DNA of 64,000 nt from Novosphingobium sp. (GCA_041909515.1 JAYRDH010000008.1:905-64904), one strand, 5' to 3'. Counted from the first letter of the stretch, positions 10,151-29,094 are shown. Notes: a model not told the origin generated them from the sequence alone. Numbers and translations are program-made.

Positions 10151-11116
10151 TTGGGCGCAAACCACCTCCATCACGGGCATGACCACGGGCACGGGCACGA
10201 CCATTCGCATGGGCATGGGCATGGGCATCACCACCACCCCGCGCCCGGCGCGCACGGGGCGGCCTTTGCCATCGCGGTCACGCTCAATGCCGCATTCGTG
10301 GTGGCAGAGGTTATCGCGGGGTACCTCAGCGGATCGACCGCGCTGCTGGCGGATGCGGGGCACAACCTGGGTGACGTGCTGTCGCTGCTGCTGGCCTGGG
10401 GGGCCAGCGCGCTGGCGGCGCGGCCCGCCTCGGATCGGTACACCTACGGGTTCAAGAACAGCTCGATCCTGGCGGCCATCGCCAATGCCGCGCTGCTGTG
10501 GTTCGCGCTGGGGGCGGTGCTGGTGGAAACGCTGCGCCGCCTGTTCGATCCGCAGCCCGTGCAAGGCGGGATGATGATGATCGTCGCCGCGGTGGGCATC
10601 GCGATCAACCTGGGATCGGCGCTGCTGTTCATGCGCGGCAGCAAGGGCGACCTCAACTTGCGCGCCGCGTTCCTGCACCTGATGGCGGACGCGGTGGTGT
10701 CGGCCAGCGTGGTCTTCGCCGGGCTGGCCATCCTGCTGACTGGCCTGACCTGGATCGACCCGGTCGCCAGCCTGATCATCACCGTCGGGCTGGGCTGGGG
10801 CAGCTGGGACCTGCTGCGCGACGCGATCCGCATGGGCCTGCTGGCCGTGCCGCGCCACATCGATGACGGCGCGGTCCGCACGTTCCTTCGTTCGCGCCCC
10901 GGCGTGGCCGCCGTCCATGATCTGCACATCTGGCCGATGAGCACGACCGAAACCGCGCTGACCGCGCACCTGGTGATGCCCGGCGGCCATCCCGGCGATG
11001 CCTTCCTGCGCGAACTGGGTGAAGTGCTGGCGCGCGACCACCGGATCGACCACGCCACGGTGCAGATCGAGCACAATGCAGACGATTGCAGATTGATCCG
11101 TCACCTCCCACATTAG
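10151..11116 (+). CDS. Cation diffusion facilitator (CzcD/ZitB-like) with His-rich N-terminus
   Basis: ALLADAGHNLGD, NLRAAFLHLMAD, VHDLHIWPMSTT, HATVQIE; probable TTG start followed by HLHHGHDHGHGHDHSHGHGHGHHHH. Confidence 0.93.
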   Translation: MGANHLHHGHDHGHGHDHSHGHGHGHHHHPAPGAHGAAFAIAVTLNAAFVVAEVIAGYLSGSTALLADAGHNLGDVLSLLLAWGASALAARPASDRYTYGFKNSSILAAIANAALLWFALGAVLVETLRRLFDPQPVQGGMMMIVAAVGIAINLGSALLFMRGSKGDLNLRAAFLHLMADAVVSASVVFAGLAILLTGLTWIDPVASLIITVGLGWGSWDLLRDAIRMGLLAVPRHIDDGAVRTFLRSRPGVAAVHDLHIWPMSTTETALTAHLVMPGGHPGDAFLRELGEVLARDHRIDHATVQIEHNADDCRLIRHLPH

Positions 11117-11139
11117 CGGGCAGGTTGCACAAGGATCAC

Positions 11140-11628
11140 ATGATGCGTTCAAAATTGTGGCTGGCCGCTGGACTGGCCGTTTCCGCCCTCACCGCCCCGG
11201 CGCTGGCCCAGGATGACCAGAAACCGCTGTTTCAGGAACGCTATACCCAGTTGCGCGGCGCGTTGCAGGCGGGTGACGTGGCCGGGGCCAGGGCGATTCT
11301 GGCGCCGGGGTACGAGCTGACCGACATTCGCGGCGAAGTGCAGAACGCCGATGCCATGCTGGAACGCGCCGGCCGGATGCCGGCGGGCGCAGCGCGCAAG
11401 GTCGCCACCGAAGTGCTGGCGGTGTCCGTCAACGGCCCGCTCGCCACCGTGGAGCAAAAGCTCAACGCCGGGATGACCCGCCCCGGCAGCGATGCGACGA
11501 TGGAACTGGAAGTCACCTCCACCGACACCTGGGTGCGGCAGGGCGAAACCTGGCTGCTGTGGCGCAGCAAGCAGACCGAAATGGTCGTGAAGCGCGACGG
11601 CGAAGTGCTGTTCAGCCAGAAAAACTGA
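11140..11628 (+). CDS. Secreted NTF2-like/DUF4440 (SnoaL-like) protein
   Basis: Signal peptide ending PALA-QD; pattern ILAPGYELTDIRG...TDTWVRQGETW; AAGGA RBS. Confidence 0.7.
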   Translation: MMRSKLWLAAGLAVSALTAPALAQDDQKPLFQERYTQLRGALQAGDVAGARAILAPGYELTDIRGEVQNADAMLERAGRMPAGAARKVATEVLAVSVNGPLATVEQKLNAGMTRPGSDATMELEVTSTDTWVRQGETWLLWRSKQTEMVVKRDGEVLFSQKN

Positions 11629-11685
11629 ACCCCACGCCGGACGGGCGCGGGGTCAGCGGAATTGACGGTAAGGGTCGAGGCGGCG

Positions 11686-21848: not shown

Positions 21849-22841
21849 ATGACATCGCCAGATCCCAGCCGTTCGGACCGCTACCCAGCCGGTTCCGCCG
21901 CCTTCCCGCACCGCGACCTGACGGGGCTGGCAGGACTCGCCCCGTGGGAGATCCTCTATCTGCTCGACGAAGCGCAGCAGTGGGTCGAGCTCAACCGCCA
22001 GTCGCACAAACGGGTGGACCGGCTGAAGGGGCTGACAATCATCAACGCCTTTTTCGAAAACTCCACCCGCACGCTGCTGTCGTTCGAGATCGCGGGCAAG
22101 CGGCTGGGTGCCGACGTGGTCAACATGCATGCCGCGCAGTCCAGCGTGAAAAAGGGCGAAACGCTGATCGACACGGCGATGACGCTGAACGCGATGCATG
22201 CTGATGCCATCGTGATCCGGCACCAGTCATCGGGCGCGGTGCGGCTGATCGCGGACAAGGTCGATTGCCCGGTCCTCAACGCTGGCGATGGCCAGCATGA
22301 ACACCCGACGCAAGGCTTGCTGGATGCGCTGACCATCCGCACCGAAAAGGGCGAGATCGCGGGGCTGAAGATCGTGATCTGCGGCGACATCCTGCACAGC
22401 CGGGTGGCGCGATCGAACATTCATTGCCTGACCACGCTGGGTGCCGATGTGCGCGTCTGCGCCCCGCCCGCGCTGATGCCCGCCGACATCGAGGCGCTGA
22501 AAGTGACCCCCTATCACGATTTCGACGCCGCGCTGGCAGGGGCCGACGTGGTGATGATGCTGCGCCTGCAACAGGAACGGATGGAGGGGCAGTTCATCCC
22601 CTCCCCCCGCGAATACCGCCACCTCTACGGCCTCTCGCTCGACCGGCTGGCCAAGGCCAAGCCCGACGCGATGGTCATGCACCCCGGCCCGATGAACCGC
22701 GGGATCGAGATTGACAGCACGGTGGCCGATCTGGCCGGCCGTTCGCACATTACCCGGCAGGTCGAAATGGGGGTTGCCATCCGGATGGCCTGCCTGGACG
22801 TGCTGACCCGCAAGGCGCGCGGGCTGGAGGGCTGGGCATGA
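21849..22841 (+). CDS. pyrB: Aspartate carbamoyltransferase catalytic subunit
   Basis: [51 protein letters not shown]. Confidence 0.98.
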
Positions 22842-24070
22842 GCACGCCGAACCCCATCACGTTCACCAACGGCCGGATTGTTTCGGCCAGCGGCGAACCG
22901 GCCCCCGGTGCGCTGCGCTGTGCGGACGGGCGGATCGCGGCGCTGGGCGACATTACGCCCGAACCCGGCGATACCGTAATCGACGCGCGCGGCGCGCTGA
23001 TCGCGCCGGGGCTGGTCGATCTGGGCGTGTTCGCCATCGACAAGCCCGCGTTCCACTTTGGCGGGATCACCCGCGCCGCCTTGATGCCGGACCAGAACCC
23101 GCCGCTCGACCGGCCCTCGACTGTCCGCTACGCCGCGCAATCGGGCAAGCCGGACCTGTGGGTTCACCCGCTGGCCGCCGCGACGCGCGGACTGGACGGG
23201 CGCGAACTCGCCGAGCTCGCACTGATGCGCGAGGCCGGGGCCAGAGCCGTGGCGACCGGGCGGCGCTGGGTCGCGGATTCGGGCACGATGCACCGGCTGC
23301 TGTCCTATTGCGCGATGCTGGGGCTGACCGTGATTGCCCATGCCGAGGACGGCGGCCTGACCGGCAATGCCGTCGCGACGGCCGGCGAAATGGCCACCCG
23401 GCTGGGCCTGCCCTCCGCCCCGGCAGAGGCCGAGGCGCTGGCCATCGCCCGCGACCTGACGCTGGCGGAAATGACCGGCGCACGGCTGCATTTCCGGCAG
23501 ATTACCACCGCGCGGGGCCTGGCGCTGATCCGCGCTGCCAAGGCGCGCGGACTGGCGGTGACGGCGGGCGTCACCCCGGCCTACTTCATGCTGTCCGACG
23601 TTGCTATCGGCGATTTCCGCACCTTCACCCGCCTGTCCCCGCCGCTGCGGAGCGAGGCGGACCGGCAGGCGGTGCGCGCCGCGCTGGCCGATGGCACGAT
23701 CGACGTGATCGCATCGGGCCACGATCCGCGCGGACCGGAAGACAAGCGCCTGCCCTTTGCCGATGCCGAACCCGGCATGGCGGGGGCGGAAACGCTGTTG
23801 CCGCTGACGCTGGGGCTGGTCCGCGACGGCGTGATCGACCTGGCCCGCGCCTTTGCGCTGATCGCCAGCAACCCGGCGCGGCTGCTGGGTGTCAACGCCG
23901 GGCAACTGGTCGTCGGGGCCGAGGCGGACATCGCGCTGATCGATGCAGACCGTCCGTGGGTGGTTGATTCGGACAAGATGGCGGCGGCGGCCGGCAACAC
24001 CCCGTTTGACAAGCAGGGCGTGCAGGGCCGCGTCACGGCGCTGTTCAAGGGTGGCAATTCGGTCGGTTAA
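22838..24070 (+). CDS. pyrC: Dihydroorotase-like protein, probably catalytically inactive PyrC'
   Basis: Amidohydrolase fold ([27 protein letters not shown]) but lacks the HxH and catalytic Asp motifs; ATGA overlap with pyrB. Confidence 0.85.
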
Positions 24071-24162: not shown

Positions 24163-25614
24163 TCAGTGGCGGCGCGCCATCGCCGGGCCACCGGGGTTGC
24201 GCGCGGGAGCCGCTGCCGGAGCAGCCTTCTTCGGCGCCGGCTTGGCGCGGGCCAGCATTGGCGCGGCGGCCTTGCCAGCCGCAGCCGGGCGGGTCGAATA
24301 AGCAAAGCACACCCCGCCGCGCGACTTGACGGCGGAGCACATGGTCCGCGCGCCGCCGGCATCCAGCCCGGCCGCCGCCACGCGCCAGTAATCGCGGCCA
24401 TTCACCTTGGCGGGAGTGATGACCATGCGGAAGTTCTTCAACTGCGGGTTCTTGGCGGCATAGATGCCCCAGGCCCGCCGGGCGCCCTGCGGGCTCTTGA
24501 AGCTGCCCAGCTGGATCGCGTGCGCGCCATTGGCCGCAGCAGCAACCCGGTAGGCCGGAGCAGCCTTGGCCGCCGCCACCGTGCGCGGCGCGGCCTTGGG
24601 CTGGTAACGGCTCGGCAGGGCCTGCACGATCGGCTGCGAGACAAAGGTTACGCCAGACTGCTGCGCCACGACCGGTGCGGCCGCAACCGGAACAGCATAA
24701 GCCGGGGCCTCAACCACCGGCGCGGCAACCACCGGCGCATAACTGGCCAGGTCAGCAGCAGCCGCGGGTGCGGCATCCGCTACCGGCGGCAGTTCGACCG
24801 GCGCGGCATAGGCCGGAGCCGGGGCGGCGGCCACCAGCGGCGCGGCACTGCGTTCGGCGGCAAGTTGCTCGGCACCGGCGCTGTTGACCAGCGCCAGCGC
24901 GGTCGGCTGGCCCGGATCGGCGCGCAGCGGCGCATTCAGCAGCCCGGCAATGCGCAGCTTGTGATCTTCGGGCTTGGCCTTCATCGCCCAGTCCGAAATG
25001 CGCGCGTCGATCAGGTTGGCGGGTACGTCCTGCGCCACCATCGTGCGCGCTTCGCGCCAGCGCCCGTCCAGCGCATAGGCATAGGCCAGGTTCTGGCGCA
25101 GCTTGACGGTGTTTTCCCCGCCGCGCAGCGCATCGGCCAGAACGGCCACGCCCCGGCTCGTTTCCCCCGCCAGCGCCAAAGCCAGGCCCAGGTCGCTGGC
25201 CGGAATGGCATCGCGCCAGTCATCCAGGATCGCCACGGCGGCGCGGTGGTCGCCAGCGGCAATGGTCGCCAGCGACAGCGCCAGCGCAGTCTTCCCGCTG
25301 TTGTCGCCCAGCTTCATCGCGTCATCCAGCGTGGTCACCGCCGAATCGAACCGGCCGGCGCGCAAATAGGCCTGCCCCAGCAGCGCGCGATAGGACGGCT
25401 CGCGCGGGTTGCCCGCTACTGCGGCCTCGGCCAGGGTAATCGCCTTGTCGATCTGTCCCTTGCCCAGCGCCAGCTGCGCGGCGGCCAGCGACTTGTCCGG
25501 GCTGGGCTTGGCCACCACGGCGCCGGAGAACGACCCGCTGGCGATGGCGATCGCGGCGACGGCCCCGACGATCCCCAGCGGCAGAGCGGTGCGACGGATG
25601 CGGTTGGCAGGCAT
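24163..25614 (-). CDS. Exported TPR-repeat + SPOR-domain protein
   Basis: N-terminal hydrophobic segment; TPR-like helices (YRALLGQAYLRAGRF, LRQNLAYAYALDGRW); Ala/Pro linker; SPOR motif HAIQLGSFKS...WRVAAAG...MC...GGVCF. Confidence 0.85.
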   Translation of the reverse strand: MPANRIRRTALPLGIVGAVAAIAIASGSFSGAVVAKPSPDKSLAAAQLALGKGQIDKAITLAEAAVAGNPREPSYRALLGQAYLRAGRFDSAVTTLDDAMKLGDNSGKTALALSLATIAAGDHRAAVAILDDWRDAIPASDLGLALALAGETSRGVAVLADALRGGENTVKLRQNLAYAYALDGRWREARTMVAQDVPANLIDARISDWAMKAKPEDHKLRIAGLLNAPLRADPGQPTALALVNSAGAEQLAAERSAAPLVAAAPAPAYAAPVELPPVADAAPAAAADLASYAPVVAAPVVEAPAYAVPVAAAPVVAQQSGVTFVSQPIVQALPSRYQPKAAPRTVAAAKAAPAYRVAAAANGAHAIQLGSFKSPQGARRAWGIYAAKNPQLKNFRMVITPAKVNGRDYWRVAAAGLDAGGARTMCSAVKSRGGVCFAYSTRPAAAGKAAAPMLARAKPAPKKAAPAAAPARNPGGPAMARRH

Positions 25615-25642
25615 GGGAAGGTCCCCTTTCGTCCAGAATGCG

Positions 25643-26167
25643 TTAGCGGCGCTGTTGCTTGGCCAGTTGGGCGGCCAGCGCGGAAATGTCGGGCAACTCG
25701 GCCAGCAGACGGTCAAGCGCTTCGGTAACCAGTTGCTGCGCGCTGCGGTTGCGGACCGTGCAGGCCAGCCGCAGCTTGAGATGGCGTTCGGCATCGACCC
25801 GCAGCGTAAACGCCGCACGGCGCCCGTCGGCCAGCGCGGACCGGCGCGGTTTGGCCACCCGCCGCGAAACCTCGCGCTGCTGGCGGACCACTTCGGGCAC
25901 CACCGGTGCGGGAATTGGCGTTTCGGGCACGATGGCCACCACTTCAGCCATGACCGGCGGTTCCGCCAGAGCCAGAGCCGGAACCGGAGCCGCTTCGGGC
26001 GCATGCGGCACGTCATGCCCCATGTCATTCCAGCCCAGATCGTCCAGTTGCCGGGCCACCGCGTCCTGGGTCAGCGGGCCAAGCTGCGGGCGCATCGCCG
26101 GGCGGGCCGCGCCCTTGCGGGCCAGCAGGCTGGGGCTGAGCGAGGCAAAGGGTTTCGGTTCGGACAT
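25643..26167 (-). CDS. Hypothetical protein with C-terminal ribbon-helix-helix-like domain (candidate ParA partner)
   Basis: Basic N-terminus FASLSPSLLARKGAARPAMR, Pro/Ala linker, RRAAFTLRVDAERHLKLRLAC...SAQQLVTEALDRLL; GGGAG RBS directly after parA. Confidence 0.7.
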   Translation of the reverse strand: MSEPKPFASLSPSLLARKGAARPAMRPQLGPLTQDAVARQLDDLGWNDMGHDVPHAPEAAPVPALALAEPPVMAEVVAIVPETPIPAPVVPEVVRQQREVSRRVAKPRRSALADGRRAAFTLRVDAERHLKLRLACTVRNRSAQQLVTEALDRLLAELPDISALAAQLAKQQRR

Positions 26168-26184
26168 GCCCCCCGGCACTCCCT

Positions 26185-26904
26185 TCACGAACCGGCCACG
26201 CGGCGGCCGAAGCCACCGGCGGGACGATGCGTACCCGGAACCATCGACACGCTGGTCGGCGCGGCGAAGACGGTGCGGCGGAAATTCTTTTCCAGGCGGT
26301 CGGAGATATAGCTCCACAGCGCGGTCACCTCGGCGGCGCTGCGGCCGTTGGGATCGACTTCCATCACGGTGCGGCCATCGATCATCGACGCGGCAAAGTC
26401 GGTGCGGTGGTGCAGCGTAACCGGCGCCACGGTGCCATGCTGCGATAGCGCGACAGCGGCTTCGGAGGTGATCTTGGCCTTGGGCGTCGCGGCGTTGACG
26501 ACGAAGATCAGCGGCTTGCCCGCGCGTTCGCACAGATCGACGGTCGCGCCGACGGCGCGCAGGTCGTGCGGGCTGGGGCGGGTCGGCACGACAATCAGTT
26601 CCGCGACCGAAATCACGCTCTGAATTGCCATCGTGATCGCGGGTGGCGTGTCGATCACGGCCAGCTTGAAGCCCTGCTGGCGCAGCACGGCAAGGTCAGC
26701 CGCGAGTCGCGCCACGGTGGTCTGGGCAAAGGCGGGATATTCCGCCTCGCGTTCGTTCCACCAGTCGGCCAGCGAGCCTTGCGGATCGATGTCGATCAGG
26801 ACAACCGGCCCGGCGCCAGCGCGCTGAGCCTGCACGGCGAGGTGTCCGGACAAGGTCGTCTTGCCCGATCCGCCCTTTTGCGATGCCAATGCGAGTACGC
26901 GCAA
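26185..26904 (-). CDS. Orphan ParA/MinD-family ATPase
   Basis: Deviant Walker A QKGGSGKTT, DIDPQGS, IDTPP, PTRPSPHDL; TTG start (alternative 26910). Confidence 0.93.
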   Translation of the reverse strand: MRVLALASQKGGSGKTTLSGHLAVQAQRAGAGPVVLIDIDPQGSLADWWNEREAEYPAFAQTTVARLAADLAVLRQQGFKLAVIDTPPAITMAIQSVISVAELIVVPTRPSPHDLRAVGATVDLCERAGKPLIFVVNAATPKAKITSEAAVALSQHGTVAPVTLHHRTDFAASMIDGRTVMEVDPNGRSAAEVTALWSYISDRLEKNFRRTVFAAPTSVSMVPGTHRPAGGFGRRVAGS

Positions 26905-26968
26905 AACCAAATCCCCCTAGACTGCGGCAATTCCAATTCGACTTGCCGAGAGGGATCGCAGAACGTTC

Positions 26969-27120
26969 CTAATTTAGGGTTAACATCGCCGCACCCGCAG
27001 CGCGAAGATGTTCAGGCGCAACAATAAAACCCCTGTTAACCCGCACTTCACTATGCCAGTTAACCCTGATGACAGGCAGAGCGTGGCACTTGGTCCGCTC
27101 TGCGCGGCAACACAGGTTAA
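26969..27120. promoter_or_regulatory. Cluster of CtrA-like boxes in the divergent parA / Sel1-SPOR promoter region
   Basis: CTAA-N7-TTAAC (26969-26984), TAAA-N7-TTAAC (27025-27040), GTTAA-N7-TTCA (27035-27050), plus GTTAA half-sites at 27059 and 27116; consensus is TTAA-N7-TTAAC. Confidence 0.65.
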
Positions 27121-27162
27121 GCGCCAATGCCCGCCGCGGGCACCAGATACGGGGATTCCGGC

Positions 27163-28236
27163 ATGAACCGCACGATCGCATGGGCTGTGCTGCTCGCCGC
27201 TGGCGGGGTGATTCTTTCGCCCGCCGCGCTGGCCGATACCAAGGCCGGGGTCGATGCCTGGACACGCGGCGATTTCGCCACGGCCGTCAGGGAATGGCAG
27301 GATGGCGCCGCGCGCGACGATGCCGACGCGCAGTTCAACCTGGGCCAGGCCTATAAACTGGGCCGTGGCGTGAAGCAGGATCTGGCGCAGGCAGAGGACT
27401 ATTTCAGCAAGGCCGCTGCCGCCGGGCATATGCAGGCCTCCGACAATTATGGCCTGCTGCTGTTCCAGCGGGGAGAGCGCAAGCAGGCCCTGCCCTTTAT
27501 CCGGGCGGCGGCGGACCGGGGCGATCCGCGCTCACAATACCTGCTCGGCATCGCGCACTTCAATGGCGACATCGTGCCCAAGGACTGGATTCGCGCCTAT
27601 GCGCTGGTCAGTCTGGCGCAGCAATCCGGGCTGGAACAGGCGCGCACCGCGCTGATCCAGATGGATCGACACGTCCCGCTGGAGCAGCGCCAGCAGGCCA
27701 CGATCCTGTCGGCCGAACTGCAAAGCCAGGCCGATGCCACCCGCGCGCGCCAGCTGGCAGCGGCAGACCTTGGCAACACGCTGCCTGCGGCCGCCGACGC
27801 GCCTTCGCCCGTACCAGGGCGGGCCGCCGCGACCAATGCCGTGGCGGATGCGGCCAGCGTTGCCGGCGCCGACAGCCCCGCCACCGCCGGTGCGGACTAT
27901 GCCCGCCCCGCAGCCGCGCCCGCCGTGGCGACGGTCCGCCCGGTTGCGGCAAAACCCACCGCCCCCAGGCCCGCGCCCGCGCGGCCCGCTGCCACAGCCA
28001 CAACCGGCGGGCCGTGGCGCGTCCAGCTTGGCGCATTCGGCGTGGCCGCCAATGCCGATGCCCTGTGGGCGCGCCTGCGCCCGCGGCCCGAACTGGCCGG
28101 GCATCCGCGCATCAACGTCACTGCCGGGGCCGTGACCAAGCTGCAGGCTGGCGGCTTCGCCAGCGAAGCCGATGCCCGCGCGGCCTGCGTAAAACTGGTC
28201 GCGGGCGGATTTACCTGCATTCCCGCGCGGAACTGA
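27163..28236 (+). CDS. Exported Sel1-repeat + SPOR-domain protein
   Basis: Signal peptide ALA-DT; Sel1 repeats (DADAQFNLGQAYKLGRGVKQDLAQA, DPRSQYLLGIAHFNGD..PKDWIRAY); SPOR motif WRVQLGAFG...AC..L...GFTC. Confidence 0.9.
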   Translation: MNRTIAWAVLLAAGGVILSPAALADTKAGVDAWTRGDFATAVREWQDGAARDDADAQFNLGQAYKLGRGVKQDLAQAEDYFSKAAAAGHMQASDNYGLLLFQRGERKQALPFIRAAADRGDPRSQYLLGIAHFNGDIVPKDWIRAYALVSLAQQSGLEQARTALIQMDRHVPLEQRQQATILSAELQSQADATRARQLAAADLGNTLPAAADAPSPVPGRAAATNAVADAASVAGADSPATAGADYARPAAAPAVATVRPVAAKPTAPRPAPARPAATATTGGPWRVQLGAFGVAANADALWARLRPRPELAGHPRINVTAGAVTKLQAGGFASEADARAACVKLVAGGFTCIPARN

Positions 28237-28297
28237 CGGCCCGGAACTGACGGCCCGGAACTGGCGGCCCGGAACTGGCGGCCCGGAACTGGCGGTC
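28228..28297 (+). repeat. Tandem repeat, 5 x 14 bp cggaactg(a/g)cgg(c/t)c
   Basis: Units at 28228, 28242, 28256, 28270, 28284; the first unit contains the stop codon of the Sel1/SPOR gene. Confidence 0.95.
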
Positions 28298-28306
28298 GAT
28301 TGCTAT

Positions 28307-28321
28307 TGCGATCAATTCGCA
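28307..28321. promoter_or_regulatory. Fur-alpha/iron-response-like box upstream of bfd-bfr
   Basis: TGCGA-TCAAT-TCGCA inverted repeat 32 nt before the bfd ATG. Confidence 0.65.
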
Positions 28322-28353
28322 TTATATAGATGCGACTCCACGGGAGAGCCGCG

Positions 28354-28548
28354 ATGTACATCTGCGTCTGCAATGCCATTCGTGACACCGACCTGCGCCA
28401 GGCCGCACGCCGGCATCCGGGTGATGCCGATGCGGTCTATGCCTGCCTGGGCAAGACCCCGCAGTGCGGCCAATGCCTGGACGACGCCGCTGAAATCCTG
28501 ATCGAGGAGCGCGAACGCGCAGCGTGCGGCCAACTCGCCCACGCTTGA
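28354..28548 (+). CDS. bfd: Bacterioferritin-associated ferredoxin
   Basis: MYICVCNAI...PQCGQC; directly upstream of bfr. Confidence 0.92.
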   Translation: MYICVCNAIRDTDLRQAARRHPGDADAVYACLGKTPQCGQCLDDAAEILIEERERAACGQLAHA

Positions 28549-28614
28549 TCCGCCCCTTGTCCTCCCCGCTTTGCGGGACCATACTGGGCCACCAGCCGCG
28601 CACAGGAGCTTGCC

Positions 28615-29094
28615 ATGAAGGGTGACCCGAAAGTCATCGAATTCCTCAACAAGGCGCTGCAGAACGAGCTGACCGCCGTCAACCAGTACTGGCTGCACTA
28701 TCGCATGCTCGACAACTGGGGCGTGACGAAGCTCGCCGCGCACGAGCGCCACGAATCGATCGACGAGATGAAGCACGCCGACCAGCTGGCGGCGCGCATC
28801 CTGTTTCTGGGCGGGTTGCCCAATTTCCAGTCGATGGGGCGGCTGCGGATTGGTGAGACGGTCGAAGAAATCCTGAAGGCCGACCTGGCGCTGGAACACG
28901 ATGCCCTGCCCCTGCTGCAAGCGGCGATCGCCCATTGCGAGGCGGTGCGCGACTATGTCAGCCGCGACCTGTTCGGCGCGATCCTCGCCAGCGAGGAAGA
29001 GCACGTCGACATGCTGGAAACCCAGTTCGAGATGATCGAGCGGATGGGCCTGCAGAACTACATCCAGCTCAACAGCGCCCCGCCGGAGGACTGA
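28615..29094 (+). CDS. bfr: Bacterioferritin
   Basis: MKGDPKVIEFLN, ELTAVNQYWLH, ESIDEMKHAD, EEEHVD. Confidence 0.98.
   Translation: MKGDPKVIEFLNKALQNELTAVNQYWLHYRMLDNWGVTKLAAHERHESIDEMKHADQLAARILFLGGLPNFQSMGRLRIGETVEEILKADLALEHDALPLLQAAIAHCEAVRDYVSRDLFGAILASEEEHVDMLETQFEMIERMGLQNYIQLNSAPPED

Follow-up and report, generated by a model that had tools for sequence, protein, structure and literature searches.

A ParA-family ATPase and ribbon-helix-helix partner of apparent plasmid ancestry beside SPOR-domain genes in Novosphingobium: a candidate nucleoid-septum module

The present analysis concerns a four-gene module at positions 24,163 to 28,236 of a stretch of 64,000 nucleotides (nt) of DNA from Novosphingobium sp. 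(GCA_041909515.1, JAYRDH010000008.1:905-64904). The whole stretch is called the window below, and positions refer to it unless another contig is named. The module consists of an orphan ParA-family ATPase gene, a gene for a small ribbon-helix-helix (RHH) partner and a gene for an exported TPR-SPOR protein, all on the minus strand, together with a divergent gene for an exported Sel1-SPOR protein. We propose that the ATPase and its partner are a domesticated type Ib partition cassette, vertically inherited since the Sphingomonadales ancestor, which would coordinate the nucleoid with the septum; we hold this reading to be evenly balanced. That it also amounts to a previously unrecognised ParA-family coupling of nucleoid and septum, and hence to a new way to clear DNA or to place or time the septum, is possible but decidedly more doubtful. 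Coordination of nucleoid and septum is proposed because the pair appears to be co-expressed with a SPOR gene and because, in a sister clade of ParAs, the peptide that would dock on ParA is anchored through a transmembrane (TM) helix to a SPOR domain.

A preceding sequence-only reading had placed the four genes at the following positions, and all of them were confirmed by open reading frame (ORF) listing and translation:

26185-26910, minus strand: orphan ParF-like ParA ATPase, 241 aa, TTG start, deviant Walker A motif SQKGGSGKTT
25643-26167, minus strand: partner protein, 174 aa, with N-terminal peptide, disordered linker and C-terminal RHH domain
24163-25614, minus strand: TPR-SPOR protein, 483 aa, predicted exported, third gene of the operon
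27163-28236, plus strand: Sel1-SPOR protein, 357 aa, predicted exported, divergent from parA

The gaps of 17 nt between parA and the partner gene (26168-26184) and of 28 nt between the partner and TPR-SPOR genes (25615-25642) are exactly those reported before, and so is the presence of ribosome-binding sites, the ATGs being preceded by the purine-rich words GAAGGGAG and GAAAGGGGA. No terminator-like site was found between the three minus-strand genes, and because of this and of the tight gaps, parA, partner and TPR-SPOR are read as one predicted operon. The export and the domain content that had been assigned to the two SPOR proteins also agree with our results. Both proteins open with a hydrophobic signal-like segment, and Pfam recognises TPR and SPOR domains in the first (SPOR 27.4 bits, cut-off 21) and Sel1 (47.8 bits) and SPOR (52.8 bits, same cut-off) in the second. 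A lipobox cysteine is not present in the TPR-SPOR protein of the Novosphingobium genome. The whole genome has five SPOR genes, two of which flank the ParA pair, and this flanking is more than chance. Housekeeping genes surround the locus, its GC content is normal, and neither mobile-element genes nor a compositional anomaly were found around it.

The ATPase matches ParA/MinD-type domains in Pfam, which is in line with the deviant Walker A motif seen in it from the start. Its nearest entries in the PDB are those of TP228 ParF (4dzz and 5u1g, E about 4e-15), and the alignment covers residues 2-197 of 4dzz. In a class-wide alignment of 17 sequences, the ParAs have a mean column identity of 61 %, and the nucleotide-binding motifs, including Walker A' and B, are invariant. 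The only ParB_N match genome-wide is on another contig (C19), where it adjoins the canonical parA. The earlier statement that the window holds no parB, rep or oriC thus stands for parB, no search having been aimed at the other two, and the ParA of the window is additional to the canonical parAB.

The conservation of this extra ParA was followed in a survey of 81 Sphingomonadaceae genomes (at least 95 % complete, 80 genera), 58 of which carry a single orthologue at 75-96 % identity. The protein of the closest genome, N. arvoryzae, is 99 % identical, and a related-locus search of GTDB genomes returned Sphingomonadaceae only, at 88-99 % identity. In all of the 26 genera in which the comparison was made, the orphan ParA is more conserved than the canonical one, with median identities of 87.5 % and 72 %, respectively, and an excess of 8-19 points. 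To judge by these identities, the protein is under strong purifying selection. Its distance to the canonical parAB in complete genomes ranges from 10 % to 47 % of the chromosome, so that it has no fixed ori or ter placement. More than one copy is seen occasionally: in one alphaproteobacterial genome, two ParA paralogues lie on one strand with about 900 nt between them (L077, G183:C39, 7178-9891), and in G230 there are three copies, each on a small contig of its own.

We now turn our attention to the ancestry of the pair. A tblastn search of 72,556 plasmids gave about 480 plasmid records with ParAs that are 50-65 % identical to that of the window, in hosts that include Xanthomonas, Comamonas, E. 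coli and Methylomonas. Three of these plasmid loci were opened. In each, a rep gene is close to parA, and the next gene after parA encodes a 'hypothetical' protein of 84-114 aa that is built like the partner of the window, with an L..L(I/V)A.KG.A.P peptide at the N-terminus, an RHH domain at the C-terminus and a linker rich in Pro and Ala between them. When the partner itself was used as tblastn query against the plasmids, no match was obtained; the plasmid partners are recognised only from being the gene after parA. The combination of a ParA with an RHH partner had been likened to the type Ib design of ParF and ParG, and these are indeed the nearest structures of the two proteins, with plasmid homologues that are built alike. 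On this comparison, the pair is by descent a type Ib partition cassette that has been domesticated in the chromosome. Against NF041546, the NCBIfam equivalog for 'ParA family partition ATPase', the window ParA scores 164.5 bits, and since this is below the cut-off of 180 and the gene is not on a plasmid, we place the pair outside that functional family. With regard to replicon segregation, which is a criterion of type Ib systems, the pair also falls outside, the locus being chromosomal, parAB lying elsewhere and the inheritance being vertical.

Three parts of the two proteins are needed for the discussion below:

26090-26146, minus strand: N-terminal ParA-docking/activating peptide of the partner, residues 8-26, ASLSPSLLARKGAARPAMR, assigned from alignment conservation
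25688-25819, minus strand: RHH DNA-binding domain of the partner, residues ~117-160, AAFTLRVDAERHLKLRLACTVRNRSAQQLVTEALDRLL, assigned from a profile, an AlphaFold2 (AF2) model and Foldseek
26200-26211, minus strand: FGRR motif in the C-terminal tail of ParA (…GGFGRRVAGS), assigned from alignment conservation

The N-terminus of the partner reads MSEPKPFASLSPSLLARKGAARPAMR in translation, and residues L10, L14, A16, K18, G19, A21 and P23 of the peptide are invariant from the plasmid partners to Novosphingobium. A search of 401 alphaproteobacterial genomes with the back-translated peptide motif gave 38 hits, in 35 of the genomes, as compared to 13 for a reversed control, and 28 of the 30 hits that were fetched sit directly downstream of a ParA orthologue. 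By analogy with ParG and ParB, we infer that the peptide stimulates the ATPase activity of ParA. The RHH domain gives a weak match in single-sequence Pfam (E=0.01), while a profile of the partner family (14 sequences) matches RHH structures exclusively, namely 2kel (E=1.5e-4) and ParG 1p94 (E=1.1e-3), followed by CopG, PutA and omega. In the AF2 model, residues ~117-160 form a strand-helix-helix unit with a predicted local distance difference test score (pLDDT) of 85-95 and the remainder is disordered; the top Foldseek match of the model is ParG. From the profile, the model and the fold match taken together, the predicted RHH domain is solid at the family level, and the architecture originally proposed for the 174-aa protein (N-terminal peptide, disordered linker, C-terminal RHH domain) is recovered in translation, profile, model and fold comparison.

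The partner family has more than 7995 members, which have no Pfam domain and are annotated as 'hypothetical' or, rarely, as 'HicB-like'. The partners, at 30-65 % identity, evolve far faster than ParA, except in the peptide and the RHH domain. Two linker motifs, DDLGWNDMGHD (25990-26041) and VPEVVRQQ (~25880-25903), are conserved as well and are restricted to Sphingomonadaceae partners, and in the partners of other families a CxC motif directly follows the RHH domain. At two further loci (L203 in G329 and L181 in G407), the docking peptide is kept and the C-terminus is different, that of L203 resembling an HTH/AlpA-type segment, so that the peptide looks like a module that can be moved between proteins. 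All ParAs of SPOR modules have the FGRR tail, as do most ParAs that are encoded with an RHH partner on alphaproteobacterial chromosomes; neither plasmid ParAs nor those with a TM-SPOR partner have it.

Synteny and co-occurrence of the four genes had been put forward as a check, and across the order the genes are found together and adjacent. The arrangement, with Sel1-SPOR divergent from parA-partner-TPR-SPOR, is complete in 20 of 20 order-level loci examined and recurs outside the order in two more families. Nine of the order-level loci come from other families and have lptA/rpoN/hpf/ptsN-type flanks instead of pyrB/pyrC'/bfr/der. Within the surveyed Sphingomonadaceae, the partner gene is followed directly by TPR-SPOR, with both on one strand, in 57 of the 58 ParA-positive genera. 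Both ParA and TPR-SPOR are present in 57 cases, ParA only in 1, TPR-SPOR only in 10 and neither in 13 (Fisher p=4e-8, phylogenetic kinship being ignored). The ParAs of SPOR modules form one clade with 96/88 support in a maximum-likelihood tree of 89 sequences. The idea that the module is specific to sphingomonads was not upheld, as the ParA/partner pair is class-wide and is mostly found without SPOR neighbours.

It is important to point out that the association of ParA with SPOR is also found in another form. In a different ParA clade (88/90 support), which is mixed with RHH-partner lineages, the gene immediately after parA encodes a fused partner, in which the docking peptide leads through an acidic linker to a TM helix with flanking Arg residues, and from there through a Pro-rich linker to a SPOR domain at the C-terminus. 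Such proteins were found in G041, in G171 (P0127), in two Parvibaculaceae genomes and as P0219, the gene of which overlaps parA by 4 nt. Their docking peptides are LTASLLARKGEARP, LNTSLLAQKGEASP, LTSDLLVRKGEATP and LSSTLLARKGGASP. There is no RHH gene in these operons, and the cognate ParAs do not have the FGRR tail. NCBI names both Parvibaculaceae proteins merely 'SPOR domain-containing protein'. A HMMER search with P0127 against 1.84 billion representatives returned mostly generic SPOR proteins, with one new fused partner, P0219, among the best 150, and when residues 1-45 of one fused partner were used in a word-index search, the query alone was recovered. Because the docking peptide is fused to a protein that would bind the septal wall, which is a Rosetta-stone-type argument, we read the ParA-SPOR association as functional, and its distribution indicates that it arose at least twice. 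On the ENA metagenome contig that encodes P0127 (L210), the ParA and TM-SPOR pair is divergent from a cluster resembling those of type II secretion or type IV pili, with a secretin, a GspK-like protein, a prepilin peptidase and a GspE-type ATPase.

The region between parA and the Sel1-SPOR gene contains three conserved elements:

26969-26983, minus strand: TTAA-N7-TTAG box TTAACCCTAAATTAG, CtrA-like with one mismatch (footprint over 99 loci)
26952-26963, minus strand: TTCTGCGATCCC element just downstream of the box, which may be the promoter core (footprint)
27035-27050, minus strand: second upstream element, TGAA-N7-TTAAC, in most relatives …GTTAGCAAAG (footprint)

In the 99 parA-upstream regions, the conserved element reads cGTTAACcCAAAATTAGG..TCTGCGAtccc. 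TTAAC words are rare in the genome (~400 in total), and the four of them within ~140 bp at 26977-27114 are joint second among its densest clusters. Another cluster is directly upstream of ctrA (C24:10887-10977; gene 10987-11682), which is consistent with CtrA autoregulation, and further ones are upstream of a PilZ-like gene (C10:13533) and of a TonB-like gene (C3:70947). The box is kept in five loci without parA and the N-terminal part of the partner, and in four of these there is no partner at all, so that the box is not merely an operator of the RHH partner. Because it survives the loss of the pair, and because the plasmid homologues have unrelated palindromes, a chromosomally encoded factor such as CtrA is favoured as a plausible ligand of the box.

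Other assignments of these elements were considered. The TTAAC words as the sole RHH operator or centromere were rejected, since the plasmid homologues in gamma- and beta-proteobacteria use other palindromes and since the box outlives the pair. CenR was also rejected as the box factor, as its motif, TGA-N8-TGA (PMC9275681), misfits the box.

The way in which the module could work can be described as follows. The cassette would be expressed together with the TPR-SPOR protein, which is expected to bind septal peptidoglycan, from a conserved promoter region of apparent cell-cycle type that is common to the Sel1-SPOR gene. By analogy with ParF, ParA-ATP dimers would coat the nucleoid, while a partner dimer would hold DNA through its predicted RHH fold. 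The peptide of the partner (…LLARKG.A.P, with a Lys/Arg finger) would then dock on ParA and trigger hydrolysis, as in ParG and ParB, and the resulting ParA depletion gradient would position the partner-bound locus or complex along the nucleoid. In the Sphingomonadales, the carrier would be an RHH-bound chromosomal site or complex, co-expressed with the septal SPOR proteins. In the Parvibaculaceae and others it would be the septum itself, with the peptide tethered via the TM helix to the periplasmic SPOR domain. The output would be either to position or clear DNA relative to the constricting septum, or to place or time the septum relative to the nucleoid.

A number of observations weigh against this proposal and should be gathered here. 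Most ParA/RHH pairs at the level of the class have no SPOR gene within 8 kb, and within the Sphingomonadaceae synteny extends to the pyrB/pyrC' and bfr/der flanks just as much as to the SPOR genes, so that the SPOR adjacency in this family is mostly inherited synteny and weak evidence alone; as far as the loci can tell, the four-gene module is effectively backed by only about two independent genomic contexts. Both SPOR proteins of the window are predicted to be periplasmic, with signal peptides, and would therefore make no direct contact with ParA or the partner in the Novosphingobium genome, so that any coupling must be indirect. Of the 23 ParA-less genera, 10 keep TPR-SPOR at the same pyrC'-proximal site, usually along with Sel1-SPOR, and one genus (G500) keeps the ParA pair without SPOR genes. 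A perfect TTAA-N7-TTAA site is absent genome-wide and TTAA-N7-TTAG occurs at chance frequency, for which reasons a classical CtrA full-site regulon was rejected and the CtrA reading of the box is weak. Finally, conserved centromere-like iterons were not found near the locus.

The losses deserve some further comments. ParA is absent from 23 of the 81 Sphingomonadaceae genera (28 %), and 13 of these also have no TPR-SPOR, among them the deepest-branching members as judged by canonical ParA identity. In five of the ten genera that keep TPR-SPOR, Sel1-SPOR is its direct divergent neighbour, from which it follows that parA and the partner gene were excised cleanly. G451 retains an in-frame RHH-only remnant that overlaps the TPR-SPOR start (L213 4762-5110, minus strand), with parA and the N-terminal half of the partner being lost. 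Because the pair has repeatedly disappeared from loci that keep their SPOR genes, it is, on the evidence of these genomes, an accessory and dispensable layer on the SPOR locus. The link between ParA and septal peptidoglycan remodelling that the sequence-only reading had suggested therefore stands in part: the conserved operon and the fused TM-SPOR partners speak for it, while the dispensability of the pair and the periplasmic location of the SPOR proteins speak against it.

Several of these points can also be accounted for if the pair positions some other cargo or locus, which is presumably the case for most of its homologues in the class, and has merely been inherited beside the SPOR genes. 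Most alphaproteobacterial ParA/RHH pairs are without a SPOR neighbour, the conservation of the pyrB/pyrC' synteny in the family is equal to that of the module, the pair and the SPOR genes each occur without the other, and the SPOR proteins of the window are periplasmic. However, the operon is tight with no terminator between its genes, the module is retained across two different flank contexts, and the independent fusion of docking peptide, TM helix and SPOR domain in another ParA clade is hard to credit to chance. We thus consider such hitch-hiking to be rather unlikely. In another scenario, the RHH partner, with ParA as co-regulator in the manner of ParF/ParG autoregulation, would mainly control the transcription of the two SPOR genes from their shared intergenic region, and nothing would be positioned. 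The partners of type Ib systems, such as ParG and omega, are autorepressors, and it fits with such a role that the pair lies between the shared promoter region and a SPOR gene and that what G451 retains is the RHH part, overlapping the TPR-SPOR start. A simple repressor, however, would not need the extreme purifying selection on the ATPase motifs and on the docking peptide. In addition, the upstream box persists in loci without any RHH protein, and a DNA-binding domain is missing from the fused TM-SPOR partners, which makes this scenario distinctly improbable.

It could also be argued that the pair has no cellular role and is a relic, decaying or selfish, of an integrated plasmid or of an integrative and conjugative element, as its closest non-orthologous relatives are plasmid partition genes and as it has been lost in 28 % of genera. 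Yet 58 genera have kept it intact, as a single copy and by vertical inheritance, its ParA is better conserved than the canonical one, and no mobile-element genes or compositional anomaly are found nearby, so that we regard this option as very improbable indeed. The coordination of nucleoid and septum by a domesticated cassette is therefore the reading that we retain, at the even balance given at the outset.

Some features of the surroundings should be mentioned. A pyrC-like gene (22838-24070) adjoins the module and is coupled to pyrB by an ATGA overlap at 22838-22841. The synteny of pyrB, pyrC' and the module recurs in a distant family (L069, G082), where parA comes directly after pyrC'. On the other side, the top-scoring tandem repeat of the window, with the 14-nt unit CGGAACTGGCGGCC in 4.9 copies at 98 % identity (28228-28295), spans the last codons of Sel1-SPOR and extends into the spacer before a bfd-like ORF. 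This array was considered as a centromere and rejected, being strain-specific: neither N. arvoryzae nor any other of the fetched loci has it. The small Cys-rich ORF at 28355-28549 (MYICVCNAIRD…CGQCL…) resembles Bfd, the bacterioferritin-associated ferredoxin, and is followed by bfr (28615-29094). Ahead of the Bfd-like ORF (region 28300-28614), the AT-rich palindromic sequence ATTGCGATCAATTCGCAT may be the box of an iron regulator.

ParA/MinD ATPases are general-purpose spatial organisers of bacterial cells, and each of their new cargoes, such as carboxysomes, chemoreceptor arrays and the Z-ring, has opened a field. SPOR domains, in turn, recognise peptidoglycan only at the constricting septum. 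The present case is that of an extra ParA that is more conserved than the canonical segregation ParA across dozens of genera and that is tied to SPOR both by a predicted operon and by fusion. For alphaproteobacteria lacking nucleoid occlusion of the Noc/SlmA type, the module is a concrete and genetically tractable candidate for the coordination of chromosome clearance with septation. Natural knock-outs exist in the genera that lack the pair, and Novosphingobium, Erythrobacter and Sphingomonas include hosts that can be cultured. The locus would, in addition, illustrate cleanly how a partition cassette of plasmids can be domesticated to serve the host. It is important to note that ParA-family positioning and the type Ib architecture are known already, and that the module is not a new category. 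What is new are the fused partners, the natural deletions with a persisting box, and the comparison with the canonical ParA. No published description of the module turned up in the full-text literature, in a search that did not cover subscription-only papers, and to that extent the view that the system is uncharacterised has held up.

Among the known systems, TP228 ParF-ParG is the natural reference for the pair. In both, a small ParA without an N-terminal helix-turn-helix (HTH) domain is encoded ahead of its partner, and the partner would by analogy be an RHH dimer whose flexible N-terminal tail acts on the ATPase. The window pair differs in being chromosomal, single-copy and vertically inherited, and no adjacent centromere repeats were found. 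Its partner is 2-3 times longer and has extra conserved linker motifs, its ParA has the FGRR tail, and it forms a predicted operon with a SPOR gene. The plasmid NF041546 pairs, such as those of Xanthomonas pXCV19, Comamonas pZM22-2 and small E. coli plasmids, have ParAs that are 55-65 % identical to that of the window. They differ in lying near rep genes and in having palindromic operators of their own (GCACGCATGCGTGC), with no TTAAC words.

With McdAB, PomXYZ, ParC-ParP, PpfA-TlpT and MipZ, the window pair shares an extra ParA-family ATPase apart from parAB and a short-peptide adaptor that is encoded beside its presumed functional context. By homology, however, the window ParA belongs with the plasmid type Ib ParAs and not with the families of these orphan systems. 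The adaptor is also of a different kind, namely a DNA-binding RHH protein or, in the sister clade, a bitopic SPOR protein. We know of no orphan ParA/MinD positioning system that involves SPOR or septal peptidoglycan.

The last comparison is with the divisome proteins FtsN, DamX and DedD. The Caulobacter-type FtsN equivalog NF050813 scores 29.6 bits against a cut-off of 300, and the SPOR proteins of the window differ from this group in having signal peptides and TPR or Sel1 repeats and in being predicted to be secreted. The fused partners of the sister clade, on the other hand, are built like FtsN, DamX and DedD, with the N-terminus inside: a cytoplasmic tail precedes a single TM helix, after which a Pro-rich linker connects to the SPOR domain at the C-terminus. 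Whereas the cytoplasmic tail of the FtsN/DamX/DedD type carries an FtsA-binding motif, that of the fused partners carries the putative ParA-docking peptide.

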